Source: a virus (taxonomy: Duplodnaviria; Heunggongvirae; Uroviricota; Caudoviricetes). From it: DNA of 64,000 nt. The DNA is taken from the IMG/VR virus record IMGVR_UViG_3300017722_002988, positions 67,760-131,759 of that record, one strand, 5' to 3'. Each line of letters begins with the position of its first letter. Position 1 is the first letter of the stretch. The translations under genes were made by a program, and so were the position numbers. The notes under the pieces are model-generated. The model made no database searches and was not told the origin of the DNA. It worked only from the letters and a program-made list of their open reading frames with translations. Shown here one piece after another: positions 11,643 to 51,479 of this stretch.

Positions 11643-11750
11643 GCTTAGCTCCTCTTACATTATCAATGTACACTTATAGGAAATGAAGTACACTGCCTTC
11701 TTAGCAATATTTATGTGTACATCATTTTCCTCGTGTCGTACATTGATAAA

Positions 11751-16530: not shown

Positions 16531-16574
16531 ACGCAGTCGAACTCATAAATATCCCTATAACAGGGGCACTAGCT

Positions 16575-16961
16575 ATGGGTACTACAGTACGAACTAAATG
16601 TAAGCATCGCACTTTGAAGCTATTGGCGAAAATGGCTGTAGGTACCGCATGGTTGTTAAGTCCCAGCGCAATCATGTTTGCTGTTGGGATTCTAGTGGGT
16701 CCATATATGCACTGGACCACGGATATGATTTATCTAGCTGCCACGAATGCGTTCATACTATGGGCTTCTATACTAATAACGTTTCTGGGCTGCATGCGTC
16801 ACATGCGCCACGAAATTAGATCTGATATCGAAGACTATCACGATCAGTTTGTGGCACTGCGCTATTGGACTGCGGAACCTGGCTCTCCAAAAACGGATTT
16901 GGATACACTGAAATCTCTTAAACAAAAACTACTAGCAAGCGCAAGCAATGCAAGCTCCTAG
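16575..16961 (+). CDS. integral membrane protein
   Basis: Several hydrophobic segments. Confidence 0.5.
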   Translation: MGTTVRTKCKHRTLKLLAKMAVGTAWLLSPSAIMFAVGILVGPYMHWTTDMIYLAATNAFILWASILITFLGCMRHMRHEIRSDIEDYHDQFVALRYWTAEPGSPKTDLDTLKSLKQKLLASASNASS

Positions 16962-17397
16962 ACTTGACGGGTTTGTCCCTATTTTCATCGCAGGAACTAT
17001 AGTCCTTGGCGCCGCTTGGTTTTTAGCACCTGCTGCCATTGTGTTCGCTGCCTGCTTTATTGTTTTGGGATTGTCTATGTCTCTCTCAAAACTGTTAGCC
17101 ATATGGGCTTGCGGCGTTTGGATTCTAGGCCATGGTATATTCTGGCTCTATATCAGGTTCCATGATTGGGTCGTTCTAAAAATCTATGAACGCAAGCATG
17201 AAGATTTCATGCGCATCAGGGATATATTTTACTATCCCACCGCGTGTTGCGCGGAATCTTATGAAGCTCTAAAAGAGCGTGAAAGGAATTGGCAAGATGG
17301 CAAAGGGCCGGGTTGTAACGTGCCGTACTCCGCACTGCGGTGCGAAAGTGAACTACGAGACGAGGTGGGTTCGTGGCTGGAGTTCGCCGGGGACTAG
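16948..17397 (+). CDS. integral membrane protein
   Basis: Several hydrophobic segments. Confidence 0.5.
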   Translation: MQAPRLDGFVPIFIAGTIVLGAAWFLAPAAIVFAACFIVLGLSMSLSKLLAIWACGVWILGHGIFWLYIRFHDWVVLKIYERKHEDFMRIRDIFYYPTACCAESYEALKERERNWQDGKGPGCNVPYSALRCESELRDEVGSWLEFAGD

Positions 17398-17521
17398 TGG
17401 CGAGTTCAACGTAACGAGTAACGTAAAAGAGCATCATTGCCCAATATGCAACAAGCCGCTCTTAACGCCTGAAGAAGATGCCGCAACTCCGATCAGACAG
17501 TACTATTCTAGTACCATGTGA
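17279..17521 (+). CDS. small zinc-ribbon protein
   Basis: CRTPHC...HHCPIC cysteine/histidine pairs; the start may instead be the internal MAKGRVV. Confidence 0.45.
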   Translation: MKGIGKMAKGRVVTCRTPHCGAKVNYETRWVRGWSSPGTSGEFNVTSNVKEHHCPICNKPLLTPEEDAATPIRQYYSSTM

Positions 17522-17547
17522 AAAGGGACCCCGTAGGGTCCCTTTCT
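17522..17547. terminator. bidirectional rho-independent terminator (AAAAGGGACCC-CGTA-GGGTCCCTTT)
   Basis: Perfect GC stem flanked by A/T runs, between convergent genes. Confidence 0.8.
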
Positions 17548-17553
17548 TCGTTC

Positions 17554-18063
17554 TTAGGCTTCGTTGGTCGAGACCTTGCCGGCGGCCGACCTTCTGATCA
17601 CCTTTGCAGGTGGTAGAGGCGCTTCTAGCGGCCAGCGCATGCCGCCCTCAGTCAGGCGACTCTTAGCAATCATAGTCTCGGAAACCGAGTTACCCTGATT
17701 GCCGCCTAGTACCCAATAATGGGTCGCCGTCTCGCCGGCATAAAAGCCAACATGTCCACCACCATCGCGAGTAAAGACCAGAACCGCACCAGCACGTGGC
17801 TCAGTTAGCTGCCGACCCCAGGTCGCCCATGCCTTAGCACGGACAGCGATAGGAGCAGTCTTAAGACCGGCAGTATCGATACAGTGGGCTACGAACGTGC
17901 CACACCAAGGAGTCTCGTCATCCTTGACAGCAATACCGAGCTTGTTGCCGAGGCGCTTTGCCCAAGCCATAATTGTAGGGTTATGCTTCGAGCCTGGGTA
18001 TTCCTTCAGGCCAATCCACTTACGGGCTTCGGTGTACCAAGCCGGATCAATAGTCTTTGTCAT
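17554..18063 (-). CDS. cell-wall hydrolase, CHAP / NlpC-P60-like (TIGR02594-like)
   Basis: Candidate catalytic Cys (WCGTFVAHC) and His (GGHVGFY); GGAG RBS on the minus strand. Confidence 0.6.
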   Translation of the reverse strand: MTKTIDPAWYTEARKWIGLKEYPGSKHNPTIMAWAKRLGNKLGIAVKDDETPWCGTFVAHCIDTAGLKTAPIAVRAKAWATWGRQLTEPRAGAVLVFTRDGGGHVGFYAGETATHYWVLGGNQGNSVSETMIAKSRLTEGGMRWPLEAPLPPAKVIRRSAAGKVSTNEA

Positions 18064-20217: not shown

Positions 20218-21237
20218 ATGAAAGAATATAAGACTGCGGTCGTGATCATGCGAGCACAACCGCCACACATCGCCCACGTTGAGCTAATCCGTGAGGCATA
20301 TGACATCGCCGATCACGTCATTTTGATTTTTGGCAGTTCGTATCTCCCCCGATCCTACAAGAACCCATTTACTTTCGATGAGCGTAAGAGCATGATGCTC
20401 GACGCCCTCTATGATGCTGGTATGCCAGCCTTTAGCGGTTTCGAGTATCACGGTTCGCCGGACTTCAATGACAACAACGCTTGGGCAGCCAACATTCAAG
20501 AGTTGGTCGGCGACAGCGGCAAGACGGTTCTCGTCGGACACATGAAGGACAACTCGAGCTTCTATCTCGACATGTTCCCCCAATGGGATCGCTTTGACCC
20601 CGGCCTGGTTCATCCCCTGAATGCGACGGACGTGCGAGATCTCTATTTCCGCAAGGACTGCAATCTCCGTTATTTCTCAGACGTTCTGCCAACCTCTGTC
20701 ATTTCGTTCCTGCGTGCTTTCAAAGCAACCGAGGAATATCAGCAGGTCATCCGCGAGCGCGAACATATCGAAATGTATCGTCGCCAGTATGAACATCTCC
20801 CATACGCTCCAGTCTTCGTGACGGTTGACAACGTCATTTTCCAATGCGGTCACATCCTGATGGTCAAGCGTCGCTCGGAACCGGGCAAAGGGCTCTGGGC
20901 TCTACCCGGTGGATTCCTGAACGCGGCGACCGATCATTCTCTTGAGGATGCTGCCATCCGAGAACTGAAGGAAGAGACCAAGATCAAGATCCCTGTTCCT
21001 GTTCTCAAGGGTTCCATCAAGGGCAGCAAAGTCTTTGATGCGATCAACCGCTCGGCACGTGGACGGACCATCACTCACGCCTTCCACTACGTTCTTCCTG
21101 ACGGCGAACTGCCTAAGGTTCGTGGTGCTGACGACGCTGAGAAGGCCGTGTGGATTCCGATCTCGCAAGTCAATCGTGAAGAGTGCTTTGAAGACCACTA
21201 CCTCATCATCCAACACTTCGTGGGAGCCACAAAATGA
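20218..21237 (+). CDS. natV: bifunctional NMN adenylyltransferase / Nudix hydrolase (NadM/NatV-like)
   Basis: N-terminal nucleotidyltransferase PPHIAH; C-terminal Nudix box GGFLNAATDHSLEDAAIRELKEETKI. Confidence 0.8.
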   Translation: MKEYKTAVVIMRAQPPHIAHVELIREAYDIADHVILIFGSSYLPRSYKNPFTFDERKSMMLDALYDAGMPAFSGFEYHGSPDFNDNNAWAANIQELVGDSGKTVLVGHMKDNSSFYLDMFPQWDRFDPGLVHPLNATDVRDLYFRKDCNLRYFSDVLPTSVISFLRAFKATEEYQQVIREREHIEMYRRQYEHLPYAPVFVTVDNVIFQCGHILMVKRRSEPGKGLWALPGGFLNAATDHSLEDAAIRELKEETKIKIPVPVLKGSIKGSKVFDAINRSARGRTITHAFHYVLPDGELPKVRGADDAEKAVWIPISQVNREECFEDHYLIIQHFVGATK

Positions 21238-21539: not shown

Positions 21540-22907
21540 ATGCTAAACGAAAACAACATCATCTTCAACTCGGATTCCTACAAGTACAGTATGTACCTCC
21601 AGTATCCGCCAGAAACGAAAACCGTCTATTCTTACATCGAGAGCCGCGGAGGCAAGTGGGATTCGACTGTTTACTTCGGCCTCCAGGCTTTCATCAAGAA
21701 GTATCTGTTGACTCCGGTCACTATGGAAGACATTGATGAAGCCGAAGCAGTTATTCTGGCACACGGTGAACCATTCAATCGTGCCGGCTGGGAATACATT
21801 GTCAACGCTCACGGAGGCCGCTTGCCGATCGTGATCCGTTCGGCTCCTGAGGGTTCTATCATCCCCGGCAAGAACGTCCTGCTGGTTATCGAGAACACCG
21901 ACCCGGAATGCTTCTGGCTGACGACCTTCCTCGAGACGGCTCTGCTTCGTGCCATTTGGTATCCGACTACGGTCGCTACAAACTCTTATGAGTCCAAGAA
22001 GGAGATCTTGTCCTACCTCGAGAAGACCGGTGATCCTGAATCGATCGGCTTCAAGCTGCACGACTTTGGTGCACGTGGTGTGTCTTCCAAGGAATCTGCC
22101 GGCCTCGGCGGCATGGCTCACCTTGTGAACTTCAACGGCACCGACACTGTGATGGGTCTTGTCTACGCTCGCAACTTCTACGGTGCCGATATGGCCGGCT
22201 TCTCCATCCCTGCTGCCGAGCACAGCACCGTCACGTCGTGGGGCAAGGAGAACGAAGTTCTGCCTTATCGGAACATGCTGAAGCAGTTTGCTCGTGAGGG
22301 AACGGTTGTGGCGGTTGTTTCGGACAGCTATGACATCTTCAATGCTTGCGAGCTTTGGGGAACCGAACTGAAGCAAGAGGTGATTGACTCGGGTGCAACT
22401 GTCGTCATCCGTCCGGACTCCGGCAATCCTCCTGAGGTTGTTCTGTCGTGCGTTCAGATCTTGGACAAGAACTTTGGACACACGCTCAACGCGAAGGGCT
22501 ACAAAGTCCTGAACAACGTGCGTGTCATCCAGGGTGACGGCATCGACAAGCAGATGATCCGTGCCATCCTCTACACTCTGACTCTGGCCGGCTACTCGGC
22601 TGATAACGTTGCCTTCGGTCAAGGTGGAGCCCTCTTGCAGATGGTCAACCGTGACGACCTGGCTTTCGCCATGAAGTGCTCGGCCATTCAAATCGGTGAC
22701 CGTTGGGTTGAGGTTTTCAAAGACCCGATCACTGACCAGGGTAAGAAATCTAAGAGAGGTCGTGTTACCCTCTATCAAGAGAAGGATGGGACCTTCCACT
22801 CCGGCGTCGAGGATTGGCAAACGCCGGCCCTTGATGAGGTCTACCGAGACGGGGTTCTCGTCAAGGAAACCACCTGGGATGAGGTCACTGCTCGGGCAAG
22901 AAAATAA
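21540..22907 (+). CDS. nadV: nicotinamide phosphoribosyltransferase (NAMPT/NadV)
   Basis: 455 aa; NAMPT-family similarity (YSIPAAEHST, GDGID); paired with natV as in KVP40-type phages. Confidence 0.85.
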   Translation: MLNENNIIFNSDSYKYSMYLQYPPETKTVYSYIESRGGKWDSTVYFGLQAFIKKYLLTPVTMEDIDEAEAVILAHGEPFNRAGWEYIVNAHGGRLPIVIRSAPEGSIIPGKNVLLVIENTDPECFWLTTFLETALLRAIWYPTTVATNSYESKKEILSYLEKTGDPESIGFKLHDFGARGVSSKESAGLGGMAHLVNFNGTDTVMGLVYARNFYGADMAGFSIPAAEHSTVTSWGKENEVLPYRNMLKQFAREGTVVAVVSDSYDIFNACELWGTELKQEVIDSGATVVIRPDSGNPPEVVLSCVQILDKNFGHTLNAKGYKVLNNVRVIQGDGIDKQMIRAILYTLTLAGYSADNVAFGQGGALLQMVNRDDLAFAMKCSAIQIGDRWVEVFKDPITDQGKKSKRGRVTLYQEKDGTFHSGVEDWQTPALDEVYRDGVLVKETTWDEVTARARK

Positions 22908-24333: not shown

Positions 24334-24379
24334 CCATTTTTAGTGTGTAGTGCTTGAAGTTTGAAGCATAAATATCTGC

Positions 24380-24838
24380 ATGACTATAGCAGATATGATC
24401 ACGAAGAAGCCTTGTATGTATTGCTCCAGAGAAATATCTTTGGGTAACATAGCAAAACATGAAAGGTCTTGTATAAAAAATCCTGGCAATGCCAAGATCT
24501 GTCCTTCGTGCTCTAAGCCATTCTTCTCTTCAGGCACTACATGCTCTTATGCCTGTTCAAATAAACATTTCCGGTCTGGATCGAATCATCCTAACTGGAA
24601 GCCAGATGGTTATAAGAACATGTGCTGGGAACATCATGGCAAGAAGTGTCTTGTTTGTGGTGAAGAAAAGATTGTTACGGTCCATCATGTAAATGAGGAT
24701 CACGATGATAATAGGCCTGAGAATGTAGTTCCGCTTTGTCCGACGCACCATCACTATGTGCACAGCCGATACAAGAACGAAGTTCAACCTATTATCGAAG
24801 AATATTTACATACGTTTCAACTGAGTCGACGAGGCTAG
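24380..24838 (+). CDS. HNH homing endonuclease
   Basis: N-terminal CxxC...H...C zinc finger; HHVNEDHDDNRPENVVPLCPTHHHYVH HNH motif. Confidence 0.7.
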   Translation: MTIADMITKKPCMYCSREISLGNIAKHERSCIKNPGNAKICPSCSKPFFSSGTTCSYACSNKHFRSGSNHPNWKPDGYKNMCWEHHGKKCLVCGEEKIVTVHHVNEDHDDNRPENVVPLCPTHHHYVHSRYKNEVQPIIEEYLHTFQLSRRG

Positions 24839-24892
24839 GACATCTCTCACGTTTGGAGCGTGGGAAGCCGGGTGCGATCCCCGGGACTCAGA
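24821..24892 (+). tRNA. tRNA (anticodon TGG?), overlapping the 3' end of the HNH ORF
   Basis: Acceptor CTGAGTC/GACTCAG; arm TCACG-TTTGGAG-CGTGG; T-arm CCGGG-TGCGATC-CCCGG (non-canonical loop); CCA. Confidence 0.5.
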
Positions 24893-24916
24893 CCATTTTC
24901 ATCTTAGGAGACACAT

Positions 24917-28742: not shown

Positions 28743-28936
28743 CCATAAGTTTGGAGTTACTCAGGAAGGGTGTCGCGACCTCTGAGAATAGTCTTAGACA
28801 ATGTTGGGTGCAACACCAACCTCCGAAGCCAATCATAGAGCTGCACCATGGTGGTGGCTAGCGTCTCATAAGCGCTAAGGTCGGGATCGTTACCCGATGG
28901 CTCTTCTCTAAAAAGTTCTGAGAAAATGCATTTTAG

Positions 28937-28976
28937 CTGTGTACATAATAACCAGCCAGTGTATATTGGGAGAATG
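28937..28976 (+). promoter_or_regulatory. phage promoter motif
   Basis: GTGTACATAATAA, then TATATTGGGAGAATGAG. Confidence 0.5.
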
Positions 28977-29047
28977 AGTTGAGCATCTAATGTTCCTCCT
29001 CTTCCACGGCAGCCCATCGGGTTGACGGCTTAGGATGAGACTGCCCT

Positions 29048-29077
29048 GGCAGACGGCTTGATAATAGTCTGCCACCA
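29048..29077 (+). ncRNA. acceptor-like mini-helix with encoded ACCA (GGCAGAC, 12-nt loop, GTCTGCC-ACCA)
   Basis: Perfect 7-bp stem followed by ACCA, then the AAGTTTAC spacer. Confidence 0.4.
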
Positions 29078-29085
29078 AAGTTTAC

Positions 29086-29160
29086 GGAGATGTCGTCTAA
29101 GACCGAGGACACCAGCGTAGAGCTGGAAATGGGGGTATCGAAATCCACCCTTCTCCACCA
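29086..29160 (+). ncRNA. degenerate tRNA-Glu-like unit with encoded CCA
   Basis: Acceptor GGAGATG/CTTCTCC; Glu-type D-arm TCGTCTAAGACCGAGGACACC; 5-nt-loop hairpin in place of the anticodon arm; GGTATCGAAATCC in place of the T-arm. Confidence 0.45.
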
Positions 29161-29168
29161 AAGTTTAC

Positions 29169-29242
29169 GGGCGGGTCGTCTAACATTTAGGACACCGGCA
29201 TTTGAGCCGGCAATGGTAGTGAAAATCTGCCCCCGCCCACCA
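29169..29242 (+). ncRNA. degenerate tRNA-Glu-like unit with encoded CCA
   Basis: Perfect acceptor GGGCGGG/CCCGCCC; D-arm TCGTCTAACATTTAGGACACC; preceded by the same AAGTTTAC spacer. Confidence 0.45.
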
Positions 29243-29450
29243 AATCAGCGATAGAGCCGGTTCGAGTCCGGCCCTGGGGTCAGCCCCGGGACTCTACTGG
29301 AGAGATGTGGCTGCTAGGAGCTAACCTAGAGGGAGTAACTGAGACAACCCTCGAACTGTTGGACTGCTGGAAAATCCGATAACCGCCTTCTCAGGCTGTG
29401 CAGGACCAGAGAGTTAGCTTCGAAACTATTTGTTAGTTCTGATAAAATAG

Positions 29451-29490
29451 TTGTGTACATTAAATCAGAACTGCTTAGAATGAGAATATA
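29451..29490 (+). promoter_or_regulatory. phage promoter motif driving a non-coding region
   Basis: TTGTGTACAT, then CTGCTTAGAATGAGAATATAAG; no ORF follows. Confidence 0.5.
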
Positions 29491-30190
29491 AGATTGAGGC
29501 AGGGTGATGAACCCGTTAAGTCCTCCCAAGTTCGTGCTGCCGGGTTCGAAACCGCCAGTAAGAAGAAAGCGTCCTCCTGTAGGAACCCTCGAGGGAGATC
29601 GGGGTTGCGACTGTCGCAGGGAGGATGGGGTAAAAGTCCTCACGAGATCCCACCATTTCGCTCGAATGAGCAAACAAGATTGAATGAACGTGTGTGCGCA
29701 ACGGGCCACATGTAACCCTCGGTTGGGGTTCATTCATAAGATTGCCGTGTGCGGCAAAAGTCTGGGTAACCAGATGACAGGGAACGCCTCCCATAGGCCT
29801 CCCGACCTCTCCGGAGGGTAAAGCACACCGAACGGGCTACGAGAGGAGACTCTCGGCTTCATGTACCAATCATGGAGATACGTCCTAAGGATGGGAACTG
29901 AAAAGCCGGCCCCTAGCCGATGGTGGGGGGTTCTAACGGCAGGTCCGCAAGACCTAGGTTCACGCAAACCATTCTAAGACCGATGGCAAACGTTCAGAGG
30001 GTACCGCAAGTCCGAGGCCGCAACCAAGGGCAGGTATCATATCGATAGGAGACGGGCATACGGGCCGAAGGGTTCTGAGGAGACGTCATCTAGAAGATTT
30101 TTCGAGTAACTCGCAAGGTGAAAGGAATGAGTCGTGTTGCATTCTGTAGGGTAAAAGCCTTATGGAACAACTGGTCAAGCACGACTTGGT
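29491..30190 (+). ncRNA. large structured non-coding RNA candidate (about 700 nt) rich in C-GCAA-G hairpins
   Basis: No + strand ORF; recurrent CGCAAG GNRA-type hairpins (AGGTCCGCAAGACCT, CTCGCAAGGTG and others); promoter upstream. Confidence 0.4.
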
Positions 30191-30195
30191 GGGTT

Positions 30196-30267
30196 CCAAA
30201 CATAGCTCATTGGTAGAGCAATCGCATTGAACGCGATAGGCTGTGGGTTCGATCCCCACTGTTTATT
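30196..30267 (+). tRNA. tRNA with anticodon TGA (type I body); acceptor pairs only partially
   Basis: Canonical D-arm AGCTCATTGGTAGAGCA, arm ATCGC-ATTGAAC-GCGAT and T-arm GTGGGTTCGATCCCCAC. Confidence 0.5.
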
Positions 30268-30609
30268 TAAAAAAGCAAAGACTTGACCGAGAGTAAGTGT
30301 AAGAAGCCAAATGCCACAGCCGTAAGGTAATGTGGTCACTTGAAGCTCGCAAGGCGGACGGTGTTGATGTACGGAAGTTCGTAAGGGGTTAGCGCCCTTG
30401 AGTGGCTCGCAAGGTCAGCGGATGGAAAGATGTCGAGTAGCTTGCTCTGCATGTTGGATGGTCACCAACTCAAAAACGACTGGCTTTGATCGGATACCCT
30501 ATCATGTATATAGGTGTGGAGATCTAGGGAATATGCCGGGTCGCACTGGCAGAATAATCCTAGGAGACTGATCATTTAAGCGAGTAACTCTCATCGCTTT
30601 ACAAACGAT

Positions 30610-33919: not shown

Positions 33920-34801
33920 ATGCTACTCCACACTCTAGAAAAGGACAAGTTGATCTCGCCGCCTCGTTGGCTGCCAGACAACACCGCCTATCTGACCGCC
34001 ATGGGCTCTGTTGCTTATGGCGTCAGCGGCGACATGTCCGACGTGGACATCTACGGATTCGCTATGCCTCCTAAGGATATGGTGTTCCCACATCTGGCCG
34101 GCCATATCCCTGGTTTCGGTCCTGCACCTCCGAAGTTCGAGTGCTGGGAGCAACACCACGTTCAGGATAAGAGCGGTAAGAAGGAATACGATTTCCAAGT
34201 CTTCTCCATAGTTCGGTTCTTCCACCTTCTGGTCGAGAACAACCCGAACATGACTGACTCGCTCTTCACTCCGGATCGTTGCGTTCTGCATCAGACTCGA
34301 GTGGCTCAGCTGGTCCGTGAGAACCGGAAGCTGTTCCTGCATAAGGGTGCCTACCACAAGTTCCGTGGGTACGCCTATCAGCAACTCAAGAAGGTTCAGG
34401 CAAAGACGCCTTCCAATCCGAAGCGTCAAGCTCTGGTCGATGCCTATGGCTACGACACCAAGTTCGCCTACCACATCGTTCGCCTAGCGCTCGAGTGCGA
34501 GGAGATCTTGACTCAGGGTAATCTGACTCTGGACGCGAACGTGGCGGTTCTGAAGGCTGTCCGTGAAGGACAGTGGACTTTGGAGCGGCTTGAGCAGTGG
34601 TTCGAAGGTAAGGAACTGCAACTCGAGCAGGCCAAGATGGACTCTAAGCTTCCAGAAGGTCCGAACTATGACGTGATCAAAGTGCTGCTCTTGCAGTGCC
34701 TGGAACAACACTACGGCGATCTGTCCAAGGCCGTTGCCAAGGATAACGGTGGCCAAAATGTCATCAACGAGGTCCAGGCTGTTCTGGATAGATATAGGTA
34801 G
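33920..34801 (+). CDS. Pol-beta-superfamily nucleotidyltransferase
   Basis: GSVAYGVSGDMSDVDIYG is a GS...D(x)D nucleotidyltransferase motif. Confidence 0.6.
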   Translation: MLLHTLEKDKLISPPRWLPDNTAYLTAMGSVAYGVSGDMSDVDIYGFAMPPKDMVFPHLAGHIPGFGPAPPKFECWEQHHVQDKSGKKEYDFQVFSIVRFFHLLVENNPNMTDSLFTPDRCVLHQTRVAQLVRENRKLFLHKGAYHKFRGYAYQQLKKVQAKTPSNPKRQALVDAYGYDTKFAYHIVRLALECEEILTQGNLTLDANVAVLKAVREGQWTLERLEQWFEGKELQLEQAKMDSKLPEGPNYDVIKVLLLQCLEQHYGDLSKAVAKDNGGQNVINEVQAVLDRYR

Positions 34802-36532: not shown

Positions 36533-36606
36533 GCCTCTGTACTCCAACTGGCAGAGAGAGCAGGTCGAGAGCCTGTCCAGTGTCGGTTCGAATCCGACTA
36601 GGGGCA
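36533..36606 (+). tRNA. type-I tRNA with Leu anticodon GAG (A73)
   Basis: Acceptor GCCTCTG/TAGGGGC; arm GCAGG-TCGAGAG-CCTGT; T-arm GTCGGTTCGAATCCGAC; short variable loop. Confidence 0.5.
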
Positions 36607-36616
36607 CCAAAGTTTG

Positions 36617-36687
36617 TGCAGGTAGGATGCGGTATCCCACTCGGGCTCATAACCCTTGCTACGTCGGTTCGACTCCGACACCTGCTT
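36617..36687 (+). tRNA. initiator-like tRNA-fMet(CAT)
   Basis: Unpaired 1:72; three G:C pairs closing the anticodon stem (GGG/CCC); CTCATAA loop. Confidence 0.5.
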
Positions 36688-36695
36688 CATATAAT

Positions 36696-36769
36696 GCCTT
36701 TGTACCCCAACTGGTAGAGGGAGCGGTCTTAGAAACCGTACAGTGTCAGTTCGAATCTGACCAGAGGCA
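36696..36769 (+). tRNA. type-I tRNA with Leu anticodon TAG (A73)
   Basis: Paralog of 36533; arm GCGGT-CTTAGAA-ACCGT. Confidence 0.5.
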
Positions 36770-36787
36770 CCAATCAAGGAGACCAGC

Positions 36788-36937
36788 TTGAACCATAAGC
36801 GTGGAAAGCCTAAGAACGCCAGGAGCGGTTGCCTGATGTGCAAACCCTGGAAAGTCAATGGCTGCTGCATGGATAAGCACTCCGATGCTATAAGGAAAGA
36901 GTCTGCTAAGGATCAGATTCGTTTCATCTGCGAATAA
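36788..36937 (+). CDS. Cys-rich small protein (TTG start, 49 aa, not listed in the ORF track)
   Basis: AAGGAG sits 7 nt upstream of the TTG; CLMC...GCC...FIC. Confidence 0.25.
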   Translation: MNHKRGKPKNARSGCLMCKPWKVNGCCMDKHSDAIRKESAKDQIRFICE

Positions 36938-36938
36938 C

Positions 36939-37013
36939 GCCCCTGTAGTCCAACTGGCAGGAGACAGCGGTTTCAAAAGCCGCACAGTGTCGGTTCGAAT
37001 CCGACTGGGGGCA
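36939..37013 (+). tRNA. type-I tRNA with Leu anticodon CAA (A73)
   Basis: Cleanest member of the family: GCGGT-TTCAAAA-GCCGC arm, 5-nt variable loop, canonical T-arm. Confidence 0.55.
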
Positions 37014-37021
37014 CCAATAAC

Positions 37022-37096
37022 GCCTGAGTACTCCAACGGAAGAGAGCCCGGTCTTAAAAACCGTGGAACGTGTGGGTTCGAATCTCACCTTAGGCA
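37022..37096 (+). tRNA. type-I tRNA with Leu anticodon TAA (A73)
   Basis: Paralog; CTTAAAA loop. Confidence 0.5.
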
Positions 37097-37106
37097 CCAT
37101 TCTACA

Positions 37107-37185
37107 GCCCGCCTCCATGGGCAAATTGGCAAAGTCGCTGTGTTCAGATCGCAGAGTTTTCCCGGTTCGACTCCGGGTGGGGGCA
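37107..37185 (+). tRNA. tRNA-like with Leu anticodon CAG (A73) and an extended D-region
   Basis: Arm CTGTG-TTCAGAT-CGCAG; T-arm CCCGGTTCGACTCCGGG. Confidence 0.4.
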
Positions 37186-37240
37186 CATCGGCGTCAAATG
37201 CATAAATAGAGTAGAATCTATTTGCACGCGAGGCCCGCTA

Positions 37241-41810: not shown

Positions 41811-41850
41811 TGTACACATATTTCAGACAGTGTATATTGGTAATGAGAGT
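41811..41850 (+). promoter_or_regulatory. phage promoter motif driving a single tRNA
   Basis: TGTACACATATTT, then TGTATATTGGTAATGAGAG directly 5' of the tRNA. Confidence 0.5.
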
Positions 41851-41853
41851 TAC

Positions 41854-41925
41854 GCACCTATGGCCTAATGGTTAAGGCAGGGGTCTCTAAAACCTTGAAT
41901 CCGGGTTCGAGCCCCGGTAGGTGCA
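41854..41925 (+). tRNA. tRNA with anticodon CTA (amber-reading, suppressor-type)
   Basis: Perfect acceptor GCACCTA/TAGGTGC; D-arm GCCTAATGGTTAAGGC; arm GGGGT-CTCTAAA-ACCTT; T-arm CCGGGTTCGAGCCCCGG; CCA. Confidence 0.6.
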
Positions 41926-42181
41926 CCAAGTTTCAGTTTTCCCCTCAAGAGGGGAGATGGAGACCACAAAGGAGAGTGCTATCATGGACTAATCTGACTC
42001 TGTAGAGATAGAATGATTTTTGATAGATAAAGTTTAATTGGTAAGAACACCGTCCTCGAGACGAAAAGGAAAAAGATATGCATTCGTAGAATCGCTGTCA
42101 ACATGACCCTCCGTGATGTAAAGATCACATTACACTAAGACCACTTATGGTAACACCATCTTTACATTACGGAGACGTCAA

Positions 42182-42559
42182 ATGCAAAATCAAATCATCA
42201 CGACCTGGAAAGCCCTTGCTCGTGCTAAACAGGCCACCGCTGCGGATACGCTTAGCTATATCCTTATTCGAGCTGATGGCCCTACCGAGGCCCTGTACCA
42301 TATTCGTCGGGCCTTTTCTCCTGTCCGGAACAAGACTAAGTTGGCCAACGGCCGTTCTGCTTACGATTGCCTCTGGACGAACGAGAACTATCAACTTGGG
42401 TACTTGCTCAATCCGTTTATGATGAGCCCTCTTCGGAGGACCATGTTGACGAACCAAATCCGCTTGCGATTCCAAAAGTTTGGGATTGAACCCACCGAAG
42501 AACAGATTCAACAGTTCGAGGCCAACTACCTCTACTGCTGCAAAAGTCTGGGAGCTTGA
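42182..42559 (+). CDS. hypothetical protein
   Basis: ORF with a GGAG RBS after an AT-rich region. Confidence 0.5.
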   Translation: MQNQIITTWKALARAKQATAADTLSYILIRADGPTEALYHIRRAFSPVRNKTKLANGRSAYDCLWTNENYQLGYLLNPFMMSPLRRTMLTNQIRLRFQKFGIEPTEEQIQQFEANYLYCCKSLGA

Positions 42560-42945
42560 TTATGACAGACACCAAATACTACTACTGCTTCCTGCGGAAG
42601 GATCTGTATCCCTTCGGTCCGGAAAACCCGGCCTACCTGATCATCCAAGCGTCTCACGCTTGTTTCGAGATGGCGCGTCGACTGCCTGCTCCGGCTCCCG
42701 GTGAACAGCCCGCTTCGATGGTTCTGTTCGAGGTTGCCAATGAAGAGGAGCTGTTCCAGACGTACCGCTACCTGAAGTTCAACGGCCTGATTGAGAACGA
42801 GGACTTCCATGTCTTCTTCGAACCCGACCATGGCACTGGCTTTACCGCCATCTGCACTCGGCCCTTCGAAGGACGACAGAAGATGTTCAATGATTTTCAG
42901 CTGTTCGGCTCTCCGGAGTGCATTCAAGAAGATCTGCAAGGCTAA
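42556..42945 (+). CDS. hypothetical protein
   Basis: Coupled ORF. Confidence 0.5.
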   Translation: MIMTDTKYYYCFLRKDLYPFGPENPAYLIIQASHACFEMARRLPAPAPGEQPASMVLFEVANEEELFQTYRYLKFNGLIENEDFHVFFEPDHGTGFTAICTRPFEGRQKMFNDFQLFGSPECIQEDLQG

Positions 42946-43202
42946 TGAAGAAGCGTCAATACCAATCCCCCTTCGAGGTTGTGGTGCGGCGGCCAGGCAA
43001 CGATGACATCGCCCTGGCCGCCGCGTGGCGGTTCAACTCTGATGAAACCATCCGGCGTGAAATCGCCAAAGAGCTGGCGGACATTAGTCTTCTGCAGGAT
43101 TGGAGGCCTATCAACCACAATCTTCTAAACGCTAAGAAGGTTCGCGTCCATAAGATGCGGCGAGTGCAGGCCATCAGATCGGCCGAAATCATTTCAAAAT
43201 AG
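42918..43202 (+). CDS. hypothetical protein
   Basis: ORF. Confidence 0.4.
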   Translation: MHSRRSARLMKKRQYQSPFEVVVRRPGNDDIALAAAWRFNSDETIRREIAKELADISLLQDWRPINHNLLNAKKVRVHKMRRVQAIRSAEIISK

Positions 43203-43245
43203 TTGTGTACTTAAATCCCAGACTGCTTATGATGGGAAAGTAAGA
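43203..43245 (+). promoter_or_regulatory. phage promoter motif
   Basis: TTGTGTACTTAAAT, then CTGCTTATGATGGGAAAGTAAG. Confidence 0.55.
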
Positions 43246-43264
43246 GTTAAGGAGATATATAATC

Positions 43265-43396
43265 ATGTTCCTGCAGTTCACGCAAGACGGCCGTTGGTAC
43301 CTTCGCAATGAGGTTGGCCAGATTGTCTCGAAGCTGTTCCTCTGCTATGAGGATCTGATCGACCATCTGGAAGGTCGAGTTCTGCAAGAAGTGTAA
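43265..43396 (+). CDS. hypothetical small protein (43 aa, not listed in the ORF track)
   Basis: AAGGAG RBS followed by ATG after the promoter. Confidence 0.35.
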   Translation: MFLQFTQDGRWYLRNEVGQIVSKLFLCYEDLIDHLEGRVLQEV

Positions 43397-43399
43397 GTC

Positions 43400-44215
43400 T
43401 GCACTCTGTTCTGGAGTGTGCAACATAATAGCCGAGTGGCGAGGCACCCCGCAACGGGGACGTTGGTTCAGTTCAGGATCGCTACCTGACAGCAGAAGGG
43501 TCGCACCCAAACGCTGATGAATAGCTAGGTTCGAATCCTAGATCCAGAACTGAATGCAGATAGAGCCTCGGCTCTGGTAGGTGCAATGTTGATTGAACCG
43601 GTGCGCAAGCAGCGGCCCTAGACTGGGGAGTCTGGGAGGGTGTCCTCAAGCAGAGGGAGTGCCTGGTCAAATCCCCCTTTGCGCCTTCCTGAACCGAAGT
43701 ATCAGAATTGGTAAGAGTAGTGAGTAAGGCCGGATAAAGCCCGGTGAGGAACACCAGAAACCCATTAGGGAGACGGCCTCAAGCTCTTGCCAACTAAACA
43801 GGTGAAGTCGCGAGGGACGCGGGATCGGAATGCTAGCCGCCCGAGCTTCGAGGCTTCACCTACCTAACGTAGAGAGCAAGCAAAGCTGAAGGTCGGAGAA
43901 AGTCCGATGTGGAGAGTCCATCTCGACGGAGATGGCGGACACCACGAAGCTCTCTACCATTCTATGTGACTGAGACGAAGCTATTTCCCCCTGTGCTATA
44001 CGCCGGCAATGCGAATGGGGGCGGTTCGAAACCTTATCCGGCGTTGCTGTCCTCAGTCACTACATTTTTGGGCGCCTAGTGTGAACTGGCCTAACACGCC
44101 GATAGGATCGTGCCGATCGTAAGCGCTTACGATCCAAGCAAACGAGGACTGTACACCCTCGGCGATACCGTTGGAAATCCTGGTTCGATTCCGGGGGTGT
44201 CCACCATTTTTTTAT
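43400..44215 (+). ncRNA. structured non-coding region (about 800 nt) ending in a tRNA-like T-arm, acceptor and CCA plus a T-run
   Basis: No ORF; contains CTAGGTTCGAATCCTAG and CCTGGTTCGATTCCGGGGGTGTCCACCA followed by TTTTTTT; a type-II-like D-arm AGCCGAGTGGCGAGGCA; a CCCCGCAACGGGG hairpin. Confidence 0.35.
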
Positions 44216-44306
44216 ACCCCTCCCTATAGGCGGTCTGACTCGTACGGCGTTCCGGAAGACGTTGAGTCGGTGGCAGTGCAAGTCTGGCCAAGGGGTGTCA
44301 ATTTTA

Positions 44307-44347
44307 TTGTACATAATTGTGCAACTGCTTATTATGGGAATGTAAGA
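44307..44347 (+). promoter_or_regulatory. phage promoter motif
   Basis: TTGTACATAATTGTG, then CAACTGCTTATTATGGGAATGTAAG. Confidence 0.6.
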
Positions 44348-44358
44348 AGGAATTCGAC

Positions 44359-45826: not shown

Positions 45827-46052
45827 GCTGACTGACGAGGAAGAAAAGTTCCTCCATATCATGGCACGTAAGATCTACCCGACCGCTTGGGGTGCTGGTT
45901 CTTTTTATACAGAGAACCATCAAGCTACAGCGGTCGGGCATGTTCGTGCTGCTTTCTTGGATGCCTGCAAAGGATCCAATGTGAAAATCACTCGAAAGAG
46001 AAAGACTAAACCATGTCGCCCATCTACGAAACCATCAAAAGAGACAGCCTAA
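45810..46052 (+). CDS. hypothetical protein
   Basis: Coupled ORF. Confidence 0.4.
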   Translation: MSLDIRLTDEEEKFLHIMARKIYPTAWGAGSFYTENHQATAVGHVRAAFLDACKGSNVKITRKRKTKPCRPSTKPSKETA

Positions 46053-46453
46053 CCGCCCGCAAAGCCGGCGACAAGGCTACAGCATCCCTTCTTGTTACTC
46101 TAGCGTCTGAGATTCAGGCAGCAGGTAGATCTGTTGAAGAGCGTGAGAACCCGTCGAACGATGTGGCTATCGCTACGATTAAGAAGTTCATTAAGAACGC
46201 TTACATCACTGTGGAAGCTAATAAAAACAGCAGAGACAGGGAGACGGCTGCAATGCGAGAAGTTGAGATTTTGGAATCGTATCTGCCTAAGCAGCTAACC
46301 GAAACCGAAATCAAGGTGATCATCGCTGGGCTCAAGGCTAAGCCTGGCGAAGCCAACATCATGGAACCCACCATGGGTAACATTATGGGGTATTTCAAGA
46401 CGATGTATCCTGGGCGATACGACGGAGCTTTGGTAGCCAAGCACGCCAGATAA
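46013..46453 (+). CDS. GatB/YqeY-domain protein
   Basis: EILESYLPKQLTETE...MGNIMGYF...GRYDGALVAKHAR matches the YqeY pattern. Confidence 0.65.
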   Translation: MSPIYETIKRDSLTARKAGDKATASLLVTLASEIQAAGRSVEERENPSNDVAIATIKKFIKNAYITVEANKNSRDRETAAMREVEILESYLPKQLTETEIKVIIAGLKAKPGEANIMEPTMGNIMGYFKTMYPGRYDGALVAKHAR

Positions 46454-47142: not shown

Positions 47143-47216
47143 TCGCCCTTAGCTTAATTGGCCAGAGCCAGCTGCTCATAACAGCTCAGATGTCGGTTCG
47201 AGTCCGACAGGGCGTA
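47143..47216 (+). tRNA. tRNA-Met/Ile2(CAT), elongator type
   Basis: D-arm GCTTAATTGGCCAGAGC; arm AGCTG-CTCATAA-CAGCT; T-arm GTCGGTTCGAGTCCGAC. Confidence 0.65.
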
Positions 47217-47383: not shown

Positions 47384-47468
47384 GGACGAGTTGGACAATT
47401 GGTTGGTCCGCGGGACTCTTAATCCCGTTCGCGAAAGCGGCTTGTGGGTTCGAACCCCACCTCGTTCA
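47384..47468 (+). tRNA. type-II-shaped tRNA with Lys anticodon CTT
   Basis: Acceptor GGACGAG/CTCGTTC; D-arm GGACAATTGGTTGGTCC; perfect arm CGGGA-CTCTTAA-TCCCG; 16-nt variable arm with a GAAA tetraloop. Confidence 0.5.
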
Positions 47469-47472
47469 CCAT

Positions 47473-47542
47473 CCAGCCGTAGTGTAGGTTTGCACGGCAC
47501 CCATTTGGGGGTGTTAGACTAGGTTCAACTCCTAGCGGCCGG
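47473..47542 (+). tRNA. tRNA-like with a 6-nt anticodon loop
   Basis: Acceptor CCAGCCG/CGGCCGG; CACCC-ATTTGG-GGGTG; T-arm CTAGGTTCAACTCCTAG; CCA. Confidence 0.35.
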
Positions 47543-47741
47543 ACCAAGACCCGTCCTAAGGATTCTGTGGGACGTTAAATCACTAGGAATCGGGCTTTCT
47601 CTCCTTTGCCTTAAGAAAGGAGACTGGAATCAGCCTAGAAGAGCTGGTCGAAGTCCCGTAATGTGGCACCGCCTCCGTCCGGGCGACCCTCGCAAAGGGT
47701 TAAGAGATCGGCATGGTAACCGAAATCAGGCTTCCAATTTA

Positions 47742-47825
47742 GGACGCGTCACCTCAGCAGCGAGAGGCCGGGCCTTTTAAGCCCACGGAGAAATCCCATC
47801 GGGGGTGCGAGTCCCTCCGCGTTCA
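47742..47825 (+). tRNA. type-II-shaped tRNA with Lys anticodon TTT
   Basis: Acceptor GGACGCG/CGCGTTC; CTTTTAA loop; variable arm GGAGAAATCC (GAAA tetraloop); T-arm GGGGG-TGCGAGT-CCCTC. Confidence 0.45.
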
Positions 47826-47969
47826 CCAAATTTGATGCGGACCACCTCGGACGTGGTTGCCAAGTCTGGCCAGACGGTAGAAGCCCTCGGCCGAGGGCGG
47901 ACACTTATAAAGTGATTTGGGTAGGTGGTTCGAATCCGCCCACTTTGATGGCAACGCATCAACTCATTC

Positions 47970-49015: not shown

Positions 49016-49380
49016 TGGGAGTCGACACGCGCCCTTGGATGGGCCTCGGCTATATGCTCCGTAAGGAAACCGCCGAAGATTTCAAGATCATGGACTACGA
49101 AAAGATCTATGATGAACTGATGGATCGTCAGCACGAAATCGAGGAAGAAACCAGTATTGCCTGGATTTCTTCAGATTGTTATTGCGGGGACTGGGTCTTC
49201 TTTGGCGTATCTCGATACGGCTCAGAAGACACTATAGAACAGATTCCTTACGGCGAGCGAGGGTATCTGTTCTCAAACGGTGACGATATCGACATCGATA
49301 TCAAGCAAGTTCTGGGAGCCGATCACCCCTTCCTCAAACACGCCACATTCGGTTTCTATTTCGGAACAGATTACACATGA
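49015..49380 (+). CDS. hypothetical protein
   Basis: Coupled ORF. Confidence 0.5.
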   Translation: MGVDTRPWMGLGYMLRKETAEDFKIMDYEKIYDELMDRQHEIEEETSIAWISSDCYCGDWVFFGVSRYGSEDTIEQIPYGERGYLFSNGDDIDIDIKQVLGADHPFLKHATFGFYFGTDYT

Positions 49381-49673
49381 GCTATATGAAGCCCGACGGC
49401 GATGGCCGTCAATATATCTACATGGACACCAGCGGCAAGGTCATTCAAAGCCTGCCGAATGAGCCAGGTTACCCGAAAGTAATCTATGGTCAGAATCCGC
49501 AGAGTATCAATGAGGCAATGGCCCTGATGTCTGCGATGAGAGACTTTCTGGAGTCCAATGGTGTCAAGGTGACTCTTGGCCGTAACTGGAAATTTAAGAA
49601 GGATCTCCGGTTCAACGGCCGCACGTGGTTCGACATCAACAATTTGCTACACACCCTCAGATACGGAAAGTAG
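49377..49673 (+). CDS. hypothetical protein
   Basis: Coupled ORF. Confidence 0.5.
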   Translation: MSYMKPDGDGRQYIYMDTSGKVIQSLPNEPGYPKVIYGQNPQSINEAMALMSAMRDFLESNGVKVTLGRNWKFKKDLRFNGRTWFDINNLLHTLRYGK

Positions 49674-49679
49674 AATCAC

Positions 49680-50003
49680 ATGCGTGAAGTCACATATCAA
49701 CTGAGCTGCCCTGAATACCCAGGGCTCGCTAAGGTAATCGAAGAGAGTGGTGAAATCGGACAGGTCTTTGGAAAGATCATGTCGAACGGTGGGCATCGTT
49801 TCGACCCTTGGGTTGGCAATGACCTTGGCGCCAAGCTAGACGAGGAAGCCGCCGACCTGTTGGCTGCTCTTTCGTTTATGGTCACATACTGCCCGCATAT
49901 TGATGAAAACATTGTGGGCGACAGGGTGGCCCGAAAATTCAAGTTGTTCGAAGAATGGGCAGCTGGACGAACTGATACCCGATACGATGATATTGTGCTA
50001 TAG
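49680..50003 (+). CDS. MazG-like nucleotide pyrophosphohydrolase
   Basis: EESGEIGQVFGKI...EEAADLLAAL resembles the MazG EExxE and metal-binding helices. Confidence 0.6.
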   Translation: MREVTYQLSCPEYPGLAKVIEESGEIGQVFGKIMSNGGHRFDPWVGNDLGAKLDEEAADLLAALSFMVTYCPHIDENIVGDRVARKFKLFEEWAAGRTDTRYDDIVL

Positions 50004-50384: not shown

Positions 50385-50422
50385 GGTGTACTTAATTACC
50401 AATCGTTATAGTATGAGAATAT
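50385..50422 (+). promoter_or_regulatory. phage promoter motif
   Basis: GTGTACTTAATTACC, then TATAGTATGAGAATATGAC. Confidence 0.5.
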
Positions 50423-51479
50423 GACAATGATCAAATTTCCTTCCATCGAGCAGCTGCGGACGGTCGTAAAGAACGTCCAGCACCAGTCTCGATTTGCCGG
50501 TGTCGATGACACCGGGGAGCCCATCTTTGACAGCACTCGGCCCATCCCGACCCTTCGGTTTGTTGGCACGGTGAAGCTACATGGCACAAACGCCGGTATC
50601 GTTCTGGATCGTACCGGAACTGACTTCATCTACCAGTCCCGTGAGCGTGTTCTGACTCTTGAAGCTGACAACGCTGGTTTCATGGCCCATATGCAGGCTA
50701 ATCAGGACAGCGTCGATACGCTGTTCGCAACTGTCATGCTGCAGATTGAAGATCTCGACTCAGTCAAGTTCATCTGCATCTACGGCGAATGGTGTGGCGG
50801 AAACATTCAAAAAGGGGTCGGCATCTCCGGTCTTCCCAAGATGTTTGTGGTGTTCGGTATCAAGGTCATCTACGAGACTGACGATGACGGCTCCGAAGGT
50901 GTGTGGATTCCGGTTCAAAACATCCAATACGAAGACAAGGATGCTGGCATCTACAATGTCCATCAGTTCGGTTCTTGGACGATCGACATCGACTTCAACC
51001 ATCCCCAACTGTCTCAGCCCAAGCTCATCGAGCTGACCGAGATGGTTGAGGCTGAGTGCCCTGCCGGCAAGTTCTTCGGAAACACTGGTATCGGCGAGGG
51101 CATCGTCTGGCACTGTGAAGAGCCTGGCTTTACCTCTAGCCGCCTGTGGTTCAAGGTGAAGGGCGAGAAGCACTCTGTCTCCAAGGTCAAGACGCTGGCT
51201 CCGGTCGATGTTGAGGCCTACAAGAAGCAGCAGGACTTCATCGACTCTGTCGTGACCGAAGCTCGGCTGGAACAAGGCATTCAGAATCTCATCAACGAAC
51301 AGCAGAAGCCGTTCGAGATGGCGTCCATGGGTGACTTCATTCGTTGGGTCTTCAATGACATCGTCAAGGAAGAGACTGACACAATCGAGGCCAACGGCTT
51401 TGACTCTAAGAAGCTCGGTGGTCCTATTGCCAATAAGGCACGGCCCTGGTTCATTCAGCGGCTGAACAGCGAAGGTTAA
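50421..51479 (+). CDS. rnlB: RNA ligase 2 (T4 Rnl2 family)
   Basis: Motif I KLHGTN (T4 Rnl2 has KIHGTN); IYGEWCGGNIQKGVGI resembles VFGEFAGPGIQKNVDY; FVVFGI resembles FYVFDI; 352 aa. Confidence 0.75.
   Translation: MTMIKFPSIEQLRTVVKNVQHQSRFAGVDDTGEPIFDSTRPIPTLRFVGTVKLHGTNAGIVLDRTGTDFIYQSRERVLTLEADNAGFMAHMQANQDSVDTLFATVMLQIEDLDSVKFICIYGEWCGGNIQKGVGISGLPKMFVVFGIKVIYETDDDGSEGVWIPVQNIQYEDKDAGIYNVHQFGSWTIDIDFNHPQLSQPKLIELTEMVEAECPAGKFFGNTGIGEGIVWHCEEPGFTSSRLWFKVKGEKHSVSKVKTLAPVDVEAYKKQQDFIDSVVTEARLEQGIQNLINEQQKPFEMASMGDFIRWVFNDIVKEETDTIEANGFDSKKLGGPIANKARPWFIQRLNSEG

Follow-up and report, generated by a model that had tools for sequence, protein, structure and literature searches.

The stretch analysed here consists of 64,000 nucleotides of a virus record from IMG/VR (IMGVR_UViG_3300017722_002988, positions 67,760 to 131,759) and is referred to below as the window. 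It belongs to an uncultured, environmental, tRNA-rich T4-like phage and carries, on the plus strand at 41854-41928, the gene of a tRNA with anticodon CUA, i.e. of the amber-suppressor type. The best overall explanation of our observations, to which we assign a probability of about 0.55, is that this tRNA(CUA) would be a selected amber suppressor heading a conserved unit, in which a short leader with an in-frame UAG would be gated by suppression.

Structure of the tRNA and its anticodon

ARAGORN identified 41854-41928 (+) as a tRNA of 75 nt, with cta starting at position 34 and an encoded CCA end (41926-41928). The Rfam model RF00005 matched 41854-41925 over its full length (model positions 1-71) with 65.4 bits for a gathering score of 29 (E = 2.7e-12 over 30 kb and 2e-14 locally), which ranked third among the approximately 40 tRNAs of the window. 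The acceptor (GCACCTA/TAGGTGC), D (GCCT/AGGC), anticodon (GGGGT/ACCTT) and T (CCGGG/CCCGG) stems were paired throughout, including two G-U pairs in the anticodon stem. A 4-nt variable loop, a discriminator A, G18G19 in the D loop and TTCGA in the T loop complete the molecule. It thus displays the hallmarks of a canonical elongator tRNA, namely a 7-bp acceptor stem, G18G19, TTCGA and a 7-nt anticodon loop with U33. Both the cloverleaf and the Rfam score bear out an earlier note, made from the sequence alone, which had described a perfect acceptor stem with canonical D- and T-arms. The same note had placed CTA at positions 34-36 of the arm GGGGT-CTCTAAA-ACCTT and had named a different register in a covariance alignment as one observation that would overturn this reading. 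In that alignment C, U and A remained at positions 34-36, preceded by U33 and followed by A37 and A38, in agreement with ARAGORN. Its description of the gene as stand-alone is also fair, the nearest tRNAs lying 620 nt upstream and 2.9 kb downstream, though still inside a tRNA-rich region of 24 kb.

The label 'Pyl' given by ARAGORN merely tracks the anticodon and was rejected on structural grounds. Pyrrolysine tRNAs (tRNA-Pyl) are atypical, with a 6-bp anticodon stem, a 3-nt variable loop, a small D loop devoid of G18G19 and a non-canonical T-loop. Here the anticodon stem measured 5 bp (4 bp in relatives) and the variable loop 4-5 nt, and both GG and TTCGA were present. Pfam and PHROG scans of about 50 window proteins, which were not exhaustive, returned neither pylS nor pylBCD.

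Conservation in related phages

Syntenic contigs were reached through homologues of two window proteins, an RNA ligase and an RNaseH-like protein. A tRNA(cta) occurred at the equivalent position in three further lineages, after tRNA-Val(gac) and before a homologue of orf125, the first gene after the leader. These lineages comprise contigs L102-L105, L111 and L113, whose RNaseH-like proteins are respectively 98, 72 and 71% identical to that of the window. Four distinct versions of the tRNA could be compared. The anticodon loop CUCUAAA, acceptor positions 1-6 and the CCA end were invariant, and five pairs had changed in a compensatory manner: 7-66 (A-U/U-A), 12-23, 13-22, 28-42 (G-C/C-G) and 49-65 (C-G/G-C).

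Between the window and L102, promoter and leader were 97.7% identical and the neighbouring genes 92-94%, for only 77.5% in the tRNA itself. The window tRNA (41854-41928) and its L102 counterpart (5938-6013) form a mosaic, in which D arm, variable loop and T stem were replaced while acceptor stem and anticodon arm were kept. The D arm of the window (GGCCTAATGGTTAAGGC) is identical to that of bacterial tRNA-His genes from metagenomes (L095-L097).

Since the CUA anticodon is fixed in four versions although their stems changed five times in a compensatory manner and the tRNA body was exchanged once, it appears neither recent nor neutral. Likewise, the recurrence of tRNA, loop and promoter in three other lineages, with compensatory changes in the stems, argues for selection on the tRNA(CUA). 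Conservation of this anticodon across divergent relatives makes genuine decoding of UAG the natural reading, and the tRNA is very probably a functional amber suppressor whose anticodon is selected.

Searches for the window tRNA itself were less productive. Exact and degenerate searches of IMG/VR gave no match, nor did a search of E. coli genomes, and the scan of a single JGI metagenome yielded only unrelated bacterial tRNA-His genes sharing the D arm. The IMG/VR loci found through the adjacent RyR-domain protein and the RNaseH-like protein belonged to unrelated phages, and none of their 218 tRNAs was a suppressor. Elsewhere, suppressor-type tRNAs were encountered in several phages. The Sinorhizobium jumbo phage Phosso carries an annotated 'tRNA-Pyl(cta)' (PV764938; L123, 1494-1569), which has the CUCUAAA loop in common and is 83% identical to the L102 version. 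Two tandem tRNA(cta) occur in a 343-kb IMG/VR phage (L124, 4112-4264) and one in a 15.8-kb IMG/VR contig (L125, 1945-2020), where it is directly followed by a mini-ORF (open reading frame), ATG GAT CTG TAG, that abuts a small membrane-protein gene at its start. A 72-nt tRNA(tca) was seen at 3956-4027 of L126, a cyanophage-like relative that carries heme oxygenase and bilin reductase.

The amino acid that would be inserted is, as a weak first guess, lysine, because the nearest paralogues of the tRNA(CUA) family are the tRNA-Lys(CUU) of the same phages (74-76% identical), whose anticodon is one base from CUA. The discriminator is A73 in the window and G in L113. Other affinities were mixed: the window tRNA(CUA) shares 78% identity with a phage tRNA-Glu, looks Glu/Gln/His-like in D arm and variable loop while its relatives look Lys-like, and resembles the window tRNA-Trp in its anticodon arm. 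The acceptor stem (G1-C72, C2-G71, A3-U70, with A73) does not look Gln-like. In E. coli, both LysRS and GlnRS accept amber suppressors containing U35.

Promoter and adjacent hairpin

Upstream of the tRNA, at 41811-41838 (+), lies a promoter-like motif, TGTACA-N16-TATATT, whose -10 element ends 15 nt before the 5' end of the tRNA. The earlier note had spoken of the gene's own consensus promoter. This holds insofar as the motif is the phage's own: TGTACA-N15-17-TAnnnT occurred 21 times in the window for 0.72 copies expected by chance, 20 of them on the plus (coding) strand. It does not hold for the sigma-70 consensus, of which 9 of 12 positions are matched, the -35-like TGTACA being unlike TTGACA. 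The phage consensus is about TGTACAtAAtAtnCAGACtGctTAttAT (example sites at 19082, 22940, 33136, 39624, 44308, 48731 and 52673). Copies were found 7-36 nt before start codons, including that of the DNA polymerase gene, and 16-19 nt before tRNA(cta) and the tRNA-Met at 47143. The motif type is common to relatives L100-L113 and was kept in front of tRNA(cta) in L102, L111 and L113, although the surrounding spacer had diverged.

The CCCCTC/GAGGGG hairpin that had been noted downstream of the tRNA is indeed present in the window (about 41942-41957, +, as read from the sequence). Yet it is strain-specific, being deleted in L102, the closest relative, while L111 and L113 could not be aligned over it. 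A T-run is lacking, and the hairpin was not scored as terminator-like.

The leader, the hairpin and the downstream genes

The spacer between the tRNA and orf125 displayed neither a second TGTACA-class motif nor a terminator-like site. The next motif occurs only at 44308, and the sole terminator-like match before it (42342-42354) lies inside orf125. Over about 160 nt, this spacer is 100% identical between the window and L102.

Within it, at 42066-42116 (+), lies a leader that had escaped the earlier note. A Shine-Dalgarno (SD)-like AAGGA (within 42066-42072) is followed by the mini-ORF ATG CAT TCG TAG (42078-42089) and, further on, by CCT CCG TGA (42108-42116). In L113 (4881-4913), AGGAG precedes ATG CGT TCG TAG ATC AAA TGC CTT CCT CCC TGA, and in L111 (6655-6681) the leader reads ATG ATG TAG GTC CCA AAA CCT CCC TAA. 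The layout, an SD, ATG, one or two codons and TAG, is therefore the same in all three independent lineages, with the in-frame UAG as codon 3 or 4. In each of them no further in-frame stop follows TAG until the 5' arm of a hairpin is reached, and the spacers between TAG and the anti-SD (18, 12 and 9 nt) differ by multiples of three. This TAG, about 150 nt downstream of the tRNA, was the only conserved in-frame one found.

The hairpin (42104-42180, +) consists of a 17-bp stem (42109-42125/42158-42174) and an outer 4-bp helix (42104-42107/42177-42180). Its 5' arm contains the anti-SD CCUCC together with the distal stop of the leader, and its 3' arm the SD of orf125 (GGAG, 42171-42174), which it would sequester. 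The window hairpin folds with a minimum free energy of -37.9 kcal/mol (z = -7.06), a value reached by none of 200 shuffled sequences, and z was -3.34 in L111 and -2.98 in L113. The latter two have the stem GUAAAGAU/AUCUUUAC in common with the window, followed by the anti-SD:SD helix. In the consensus hairpin, 11 pairs were found with none broken, and two of them, in the anti-SD:SD helix, were compensatory. By their coordinates, the window, L111 and L113 all display a short ORF with its own SD that overlaps the 5' arm of an SD-hiding hairpin. Pattern scans for the leader-hairpin arrangement (20 fixed bases) returned 3 matches in IMG/VR and 32 in GTDB genomes, roughly as expected by chance, and none of them lay beside a tRNA(cta) or a PTH2-like gene. 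The loop (42126-42157) is conserved between the window and L111 (CUAAGACCACUUA..G..AACACC) beyond what a simple spacer would need, and may be a binding site.

Two conserved genes follow. The product of orf125 (42182-42559, +) had no match in Pfam, PHROG or PDB. Its orthologues are 99% (L102), 46% (L111) and 55% (L113) identical, with gene order kept. The start of the second gene overlaps the stop of orf125 (ATGA); it encodes a 129-amino-acid protein (42556-42945, +) with orthologues at 98% (L102), 71% (L111) and 74% (L113) identity. A search of representatives gave 183 homologues of this protein. A profile of 60 sequences matched six structures of PTH2, a peptidyl-tRNA hydrolase, at profile positions 8-77 (24bt_A, E = 1.9e-4; 2zv3_A, 1.8e-3; also 1rlk, 1rzw, 1wn2 and 1q7s), and 20 of the 60 homologues individually matched PF01981 (best E = 3.8e-6). 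The gene product is thus probably a divergent PTH2-like protein, an assignment made at the level of the family profile. All tRNA(cta) lineages carry both genes in this order, and the module was absent from the other loci fetched. Two small ORFs further downstream on the plus strand, of 94 (42918-43202) and 43 amino acids (43265-43396), were present in the ORF list and gene calls and may belong to the same transcription unit (42918-43396). The first is conserved in L102 (95%) and weakly so in L111 and L113 (32-33%).

Use of TAG as a stop codon

Stop codons were surveyed with codon-usage-based gene calls in the 64-kb window and by stop counts only in relatives and flanks; the survey covers early and middle genes. 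The 104 calls of the window ended in TAA (52), TGA (35) and TAG (17, i.e. 16%). TAG-ended genes numbered 8 of 36 in L102, 6 of 31 in L111 and 4 of 39 in L113, so that TAG terminates 10-22% of genes in relatives carrying the tRNA. Reading TAG as sense in the window opened no new coding ORF and joined only four neighbouring gene pairs. Orthologues exchanged TAG for TAA or TGA at the same C-terminal positions with protein lengths unchanged; the RNaseH-like gene, for instance, ends in TAG in the window but in TAA in L102 and L113. The tails that read-through would add were not shortened after TAG (median 22 codons, versus 10.5 and 11 after TAA and TGA).

The earlier note had proposed that the tRNA could serve read-through or recoding of TAG-ended genes and had called for a survey of TAG stops and in-frame TAG codons. 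This survey bore out the regular use of TAG as a stop and uncovered no in-frame sense TAG. No recoding of these genes was found, about 100 early and middle coding genes being free of in-frame TAG and TAG ending 10-22% of genes. The two marks of stop-codon-recoded phages, in-frame TAG in conserved genes and rarity of TAG, are thus both absent from the early and middle genes. As to the example that had been put forward, tk (2759-3331) does end in TAG, but as an ordinary stop, since TAG interchanges with TAA and TGA in orthologues. The sole lysis-type gene encountered encodes a CHAP-domain protein (17554-18063) and is open from start to stop in the standard code. Neither a release factor nor a synthetase was detected in the proteins scanned.

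The TAG-ended genes in frame with the next gene were those of the pairs DNA polymerase-UvsX (52725-55280/55293-56399), aldolase-Cpn10 (38388-38996/39006-39305), orf90-NAMPT (21234-21506/21540-22907) and 49377-49680 (49377-49673/49680-50003). Programmed read-through fusions were considered and rejected for three of them, as the shared frame was lost in more distant relatives. The orf90-NAMPT pair stood outside this comparison, its region being covered by no relative. The TAG of the DNA polymerase gene is conserved in the window, L100 and L101.

Proposed mechanism and alternative explanations

The unit would be arranged in the order promoter, tRNA(CUA), short leader, orf125 and PTH2-like gene, with tRNA and leader on one putative transcript. 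After processing by RNase P and charging by a host synthetase, the tRNA would compete with release factor 1 at UAG. When suppression fails, ribosomes would end at the UAG of the leader, 18-27 nt short of the anti-SD, and the hairpin would stay closed. Upon suppression they would pass UAG and run through CCU-CCN-stop in the 5' arm, so that the hairpin melts, the ribosome-binding site of orf125 becomes free and the PTH2-like gene follows by translational coupling. Such an operon would both report and respond to suppressor activity, the hydrolase being made while read-through occurs. Co-transcription, charging, suppression in vivo and switching are all inferred here from sequence features. A strict switch, in which orf125 and the PTH2-like gene are translated only when the tRNA(CUA) out-competes release factor 1, is a tentative proposal that we would put at somewhat below even odds.

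Several observations weigh against this explanation. The tRNA(cta) of the relatives has a 4-bp anticodon stem with a purine-purine mismatch. An efficient suppressor would extend TAG-ended proteins such as DNA polymerase, whose gene is among the TAG-terminated ones served by the same promoter class, and no back-up stops were seen behind the TAG-terminated genes of the window. With only three independent lineages carrying the leader, the statistical basis is thin. Chance alone would keep the frame open for 5-8 codons behind TAG with a probability of about 0.7 per lineage, and the anti-SD sequence by itself could account for the terminal Pro-Pro codons. In the window and L113, a second, SD-less ATG frame crosses the hairpin arm, which L111 does not display, and the hairpin could regulate orf125 with no role for TAG. 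As to the PTH2-like protein, its single sequence had no match in Pfam, PDB or PHROG and a 4-sequence profile none in Pfam or PDB, and its AlphaFold model had a predicted local distance difference test score (pLDDT) of 44.5 and was not used for a fold search.

Among other explanations, the tRNA could serve late genes (structural or lysis) with in-frame TAG outside the window, the TAG of the leader being incidental or secondary. Known recoded phages keep the standard code in replication genes and, by means of suppressor tRNAs, recode mainly structural and lysis genes (10.1101/2021.08.26.457843). The window and its reachable flanks showed only early, middle and nucleotide-metabolism genes, and the conserved CUA anticodon is also in line with such stage-specific recoding. 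It is nevertheless unlikely: TAG is not depleted (16% of window genes, 10-22% in tRNA-bearing relatives), G+C is about 50% whereas the proposed route starts at low G+C with rare TAG or TGA stops (10.1101/2021.08.26.457843), and the CHAP-domain gene is intact in the standard code. Moreover, the promoter class is that of DNA polymerase, with no distinct late signal, and the scanned proteins included no release factor or synthetase.

Somewhat less likely still is read-through with no target in cis, by which TAG-ended host or phage proteins would be extended (host takeover) or amber mutations buffered. Laboratory E. coli strains do tolerate supE and supF. The recurrence of suppressor-type tRNAs in the tRNA-rich phages Phosso (cta), L124 (two cta), L125 (cta) and L126 (tca) also speaks for it, and such roles were suggested for suppressor tRNAs in standard-code phages (PMC8386662). 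Yet it leaves the conserved linkage to leader, hairpin, orf125 and PTH2-like gene unexplained, the phage shows no sign of shielding its own TAG-terminated genes, and buffering of nonsense mutations is a weak force to fix an anticodon across lineages about 30% apart in protein. Finally, the tRNA might not decode at all, being either a recent, neutrally drifting anticodon mutant of a Lys (CUU), Glu (CUC), Gln (CUG) or Trp (CCA) tRNA, or a decoy for anticodon nucleases or a signal for mRNA processing. CUA is indeed one base from CUU, CUC and CUG, and the many variants of tRNAs with Lys anticodons and an RNA-repair set (three RNA ligases, a phosphoesterase and RlaP) point to a conflict over tRNA cleavage. 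In addition, a tRNA that begins an mRNA can provide a site for processing by RNase P. This explanation is nonetheless very improbable, given an anticodon fixed through five compensatory changes and one exchange of body, and features (encoded CCA, G18G19, TTCGA, U33 and A37A38) that fit a translating tRNA.

Relation to known systems

Suppressor tRNAs are an established phenomenon in phages (10.1101/2021.08.26.457843; phiKp24, PMC8386662). With recoded phages (crAss-like, Lak, Agate and Jade; 10.1101/2021.08.26.457843) the phage studied here has in common a phage-borne CUA tRNA, a presumed standard-code host and replication genes in the standard code. In contrast to them, TAG is here a frequent terminator (10-22%), G+C is about 50% and the protein-coding genes examined contain no in-frame TAG; the phage is also environmental (presumably freshwater) and T4-like, not from the gut, and the 'code-change module' of release factor and synthetase was not seen. 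Closer counterparts are standard-code phages, since phiKp24 with tRNA-Sup-TTA (PMC8386662), a relative of Agate with a TGA suppressor and Phosso likewise combine a suppressor tRNA with a code 11 genome. What sets the present case apart from these three is that the tRNA is conserved across lineages with covarying stems, has a promoter of its own and is linked to a downstream operon whose leader has an in-frame TAG; the texts on them describe none of this.

Regulation by the handling of a codon in a short frame has precedents. In prfB, the gene of release factor 2 (RF2), an in-frame stop codon gauges decoding capacity and shortage of RF2 leads to a frameshift. In the leader attenuation of ermC and cat, the ribosome-binding site downstream is buried in a hairpin, which leader translation opens as a result of antibiotic-induced stalling. 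As in these systems, what the ribosome does at a codon of a short frame would decide downstream expression; the proposed signal differs in that UAG would be suppressed by a tRNA from the transcript itself. The bar minigenes of phage lambda are mini-ORFs of 2-3 codons with an SD that promote drop-off of peptidyl-tRNA, which is cleared by Pth. They resemble the present leader as SD-preceded mini-ORFs close to the biology of peptidyl-tRNA hydrolase. Here, however, the putative hydrolase is phage-encoded and PTH2-like, the UAG of the minigene lies beside a UAG suppressor and the frame runs into a putative regulatory hairpin.

The anticodon loop CUCUAAA is also found in supF. A UAG suppressor tRNA, psu1+, can be carried by T4 (McClain 1970, as cited in PMC8386662). 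The supF and supE tRNAs of E. coli and T4 psu1+ all have the CUA anticodon and arose by laboratory selection, whereas the tRNA described here is natural and conserved in wild lineages.

What appears new is a CUA tRNA kept under purifying selection in an environmental T4-like lineage with free use of TAG stops, together with the position of this tRNA at the head of what is probably a conserved operon with a PTH2-like gene, and a putative conserved amber-containing leader before a hairpin predicted to hide a ribosome-binding site. Phage suppressor tRNAs have been explained almost wholly by recoding, and it is recognised that their occurrence in standard-code phages still has to be accounted for. 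If the proposed mechanism is true, they would gain a function in phages that do not recode, as a regulatory use of nonsense suppression, which would also be linked to peptidyl-tRNA recycling through a phage PTH2-like enzyme. The unit would then, to our knowledge, be the first riboregulator found in nature to take as its input the suppression of nonsense codons by a tRNA on its own transcript, and tRNA plus amber-gated leader could serve synthetic biology as a compact part of natural origin. Should late genes prove to be recoded instead, recoding would reach into environmental T4-like phages whose G+C is balanced and whose TAG stops are frequent, a combination that the current evolutionary model does not predict.

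Source and gene content of the window

Replication genes of the T4 type are prominent in the window (sliding clamp, clamp loader, family-B DNA polymerase, RecA/UvsX homologue and DnaB-type helicase), and the DNA polymerase shares only about 44% identity with its counterparts in Sinorhizobium phage phiM12 and T4-like cyanophages. At the nucleotide level, the window had no match in the phage collection searched. A segment of 12.9 kb is 100% identical to a Logan contig (SRR10520206_9517), and identical pieces were recovered in JGI samples 3300017778 and 3300017716. Judging by the JGI sample series, the habitat is presumably freshwater. G+C of the window is about 50%. Flanks could be extended by 5 kb downstream (L118), 4.7 kb upstream (L121) and, in a relative, about 17 kb downstream (L122). 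These extensions contained only nucleotide-metabolism and unknown genes and no late genes, so that the window and all reachable flanks consist of early, middle and nucleotide-metabolism genes only.

Genes of nucleotide and NAD metabolism were also found. A NAD salvage pair, known from other large phages, comprises an NMNAT/Nudix-type cytidylyltransferase-family protein (20218-21237) and a nicotinamide phosphoribosyltransferase (21540-22907). RNA-repair and tRNA-related genes occupy six loci (11715-12395, 12388-12993, 14726-15850, 33920-34801, 46013-46453 and 50421-51479), which encode three RNA ligase homologues, a phosphoesterase, an RlaP-family nucleotidyltransferase and a YqeY (GatB C-terminal-like) protein. 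This set suggests a conflict with tRNA-cleaving defences of the host. Near the tRNAs of relatives lies a PP-loop ATPase (PF01171), presumably TilS-like (L100, 605-1201; L111, 12305-12904; L113, 12759-13391).

ARAGORN called 38 tRNA genes in the window, all on the plus strand and between 23.7 and 48 kb. Some of them were unusual. Two tRNAs with the Lys anticodons CUU and UUU (47384-47471 and 47742-47825) are of class II shape, i.e. with a long variable arm, a feature conserved in L100, L102, L111 and L113. Five tandem tRNAs at 36533-37186 have Leu anticodons (gag, tag, caa, taa and cag), yet short variable loops (class I shape). Two odd calls were made at 47473-47546 and 47874-47947, one with a 2-nt anticodon and the other a poorly paired 'Tyr(ata)'; tRNA-Tyr(GUA) was not seen among the tRNA calls of the window.

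A GOLLD RNA gave a full-length Rfam match at 30129-30597 (+) with 173.5 bits (gathering score 150). It contains a tRNA-like element called by ARAGORN as tRNA-Ser tga (30196-30267), and upstream of it lies an ORF-free stretch of 1.2 kb (28907-30128) with two copies of the phage promoter motif (28940 and 29454). Other ORF-free stretches, of 0.6-1 kb, occur at 43397-44316, 16531-17553 and 24337-24916, and none of them is filled by read-through of TAG. For the first of these gaps, an Rfam scan of 43350-44350 gave no match, and relatives carry extra tRNA genes at the equivalent position.

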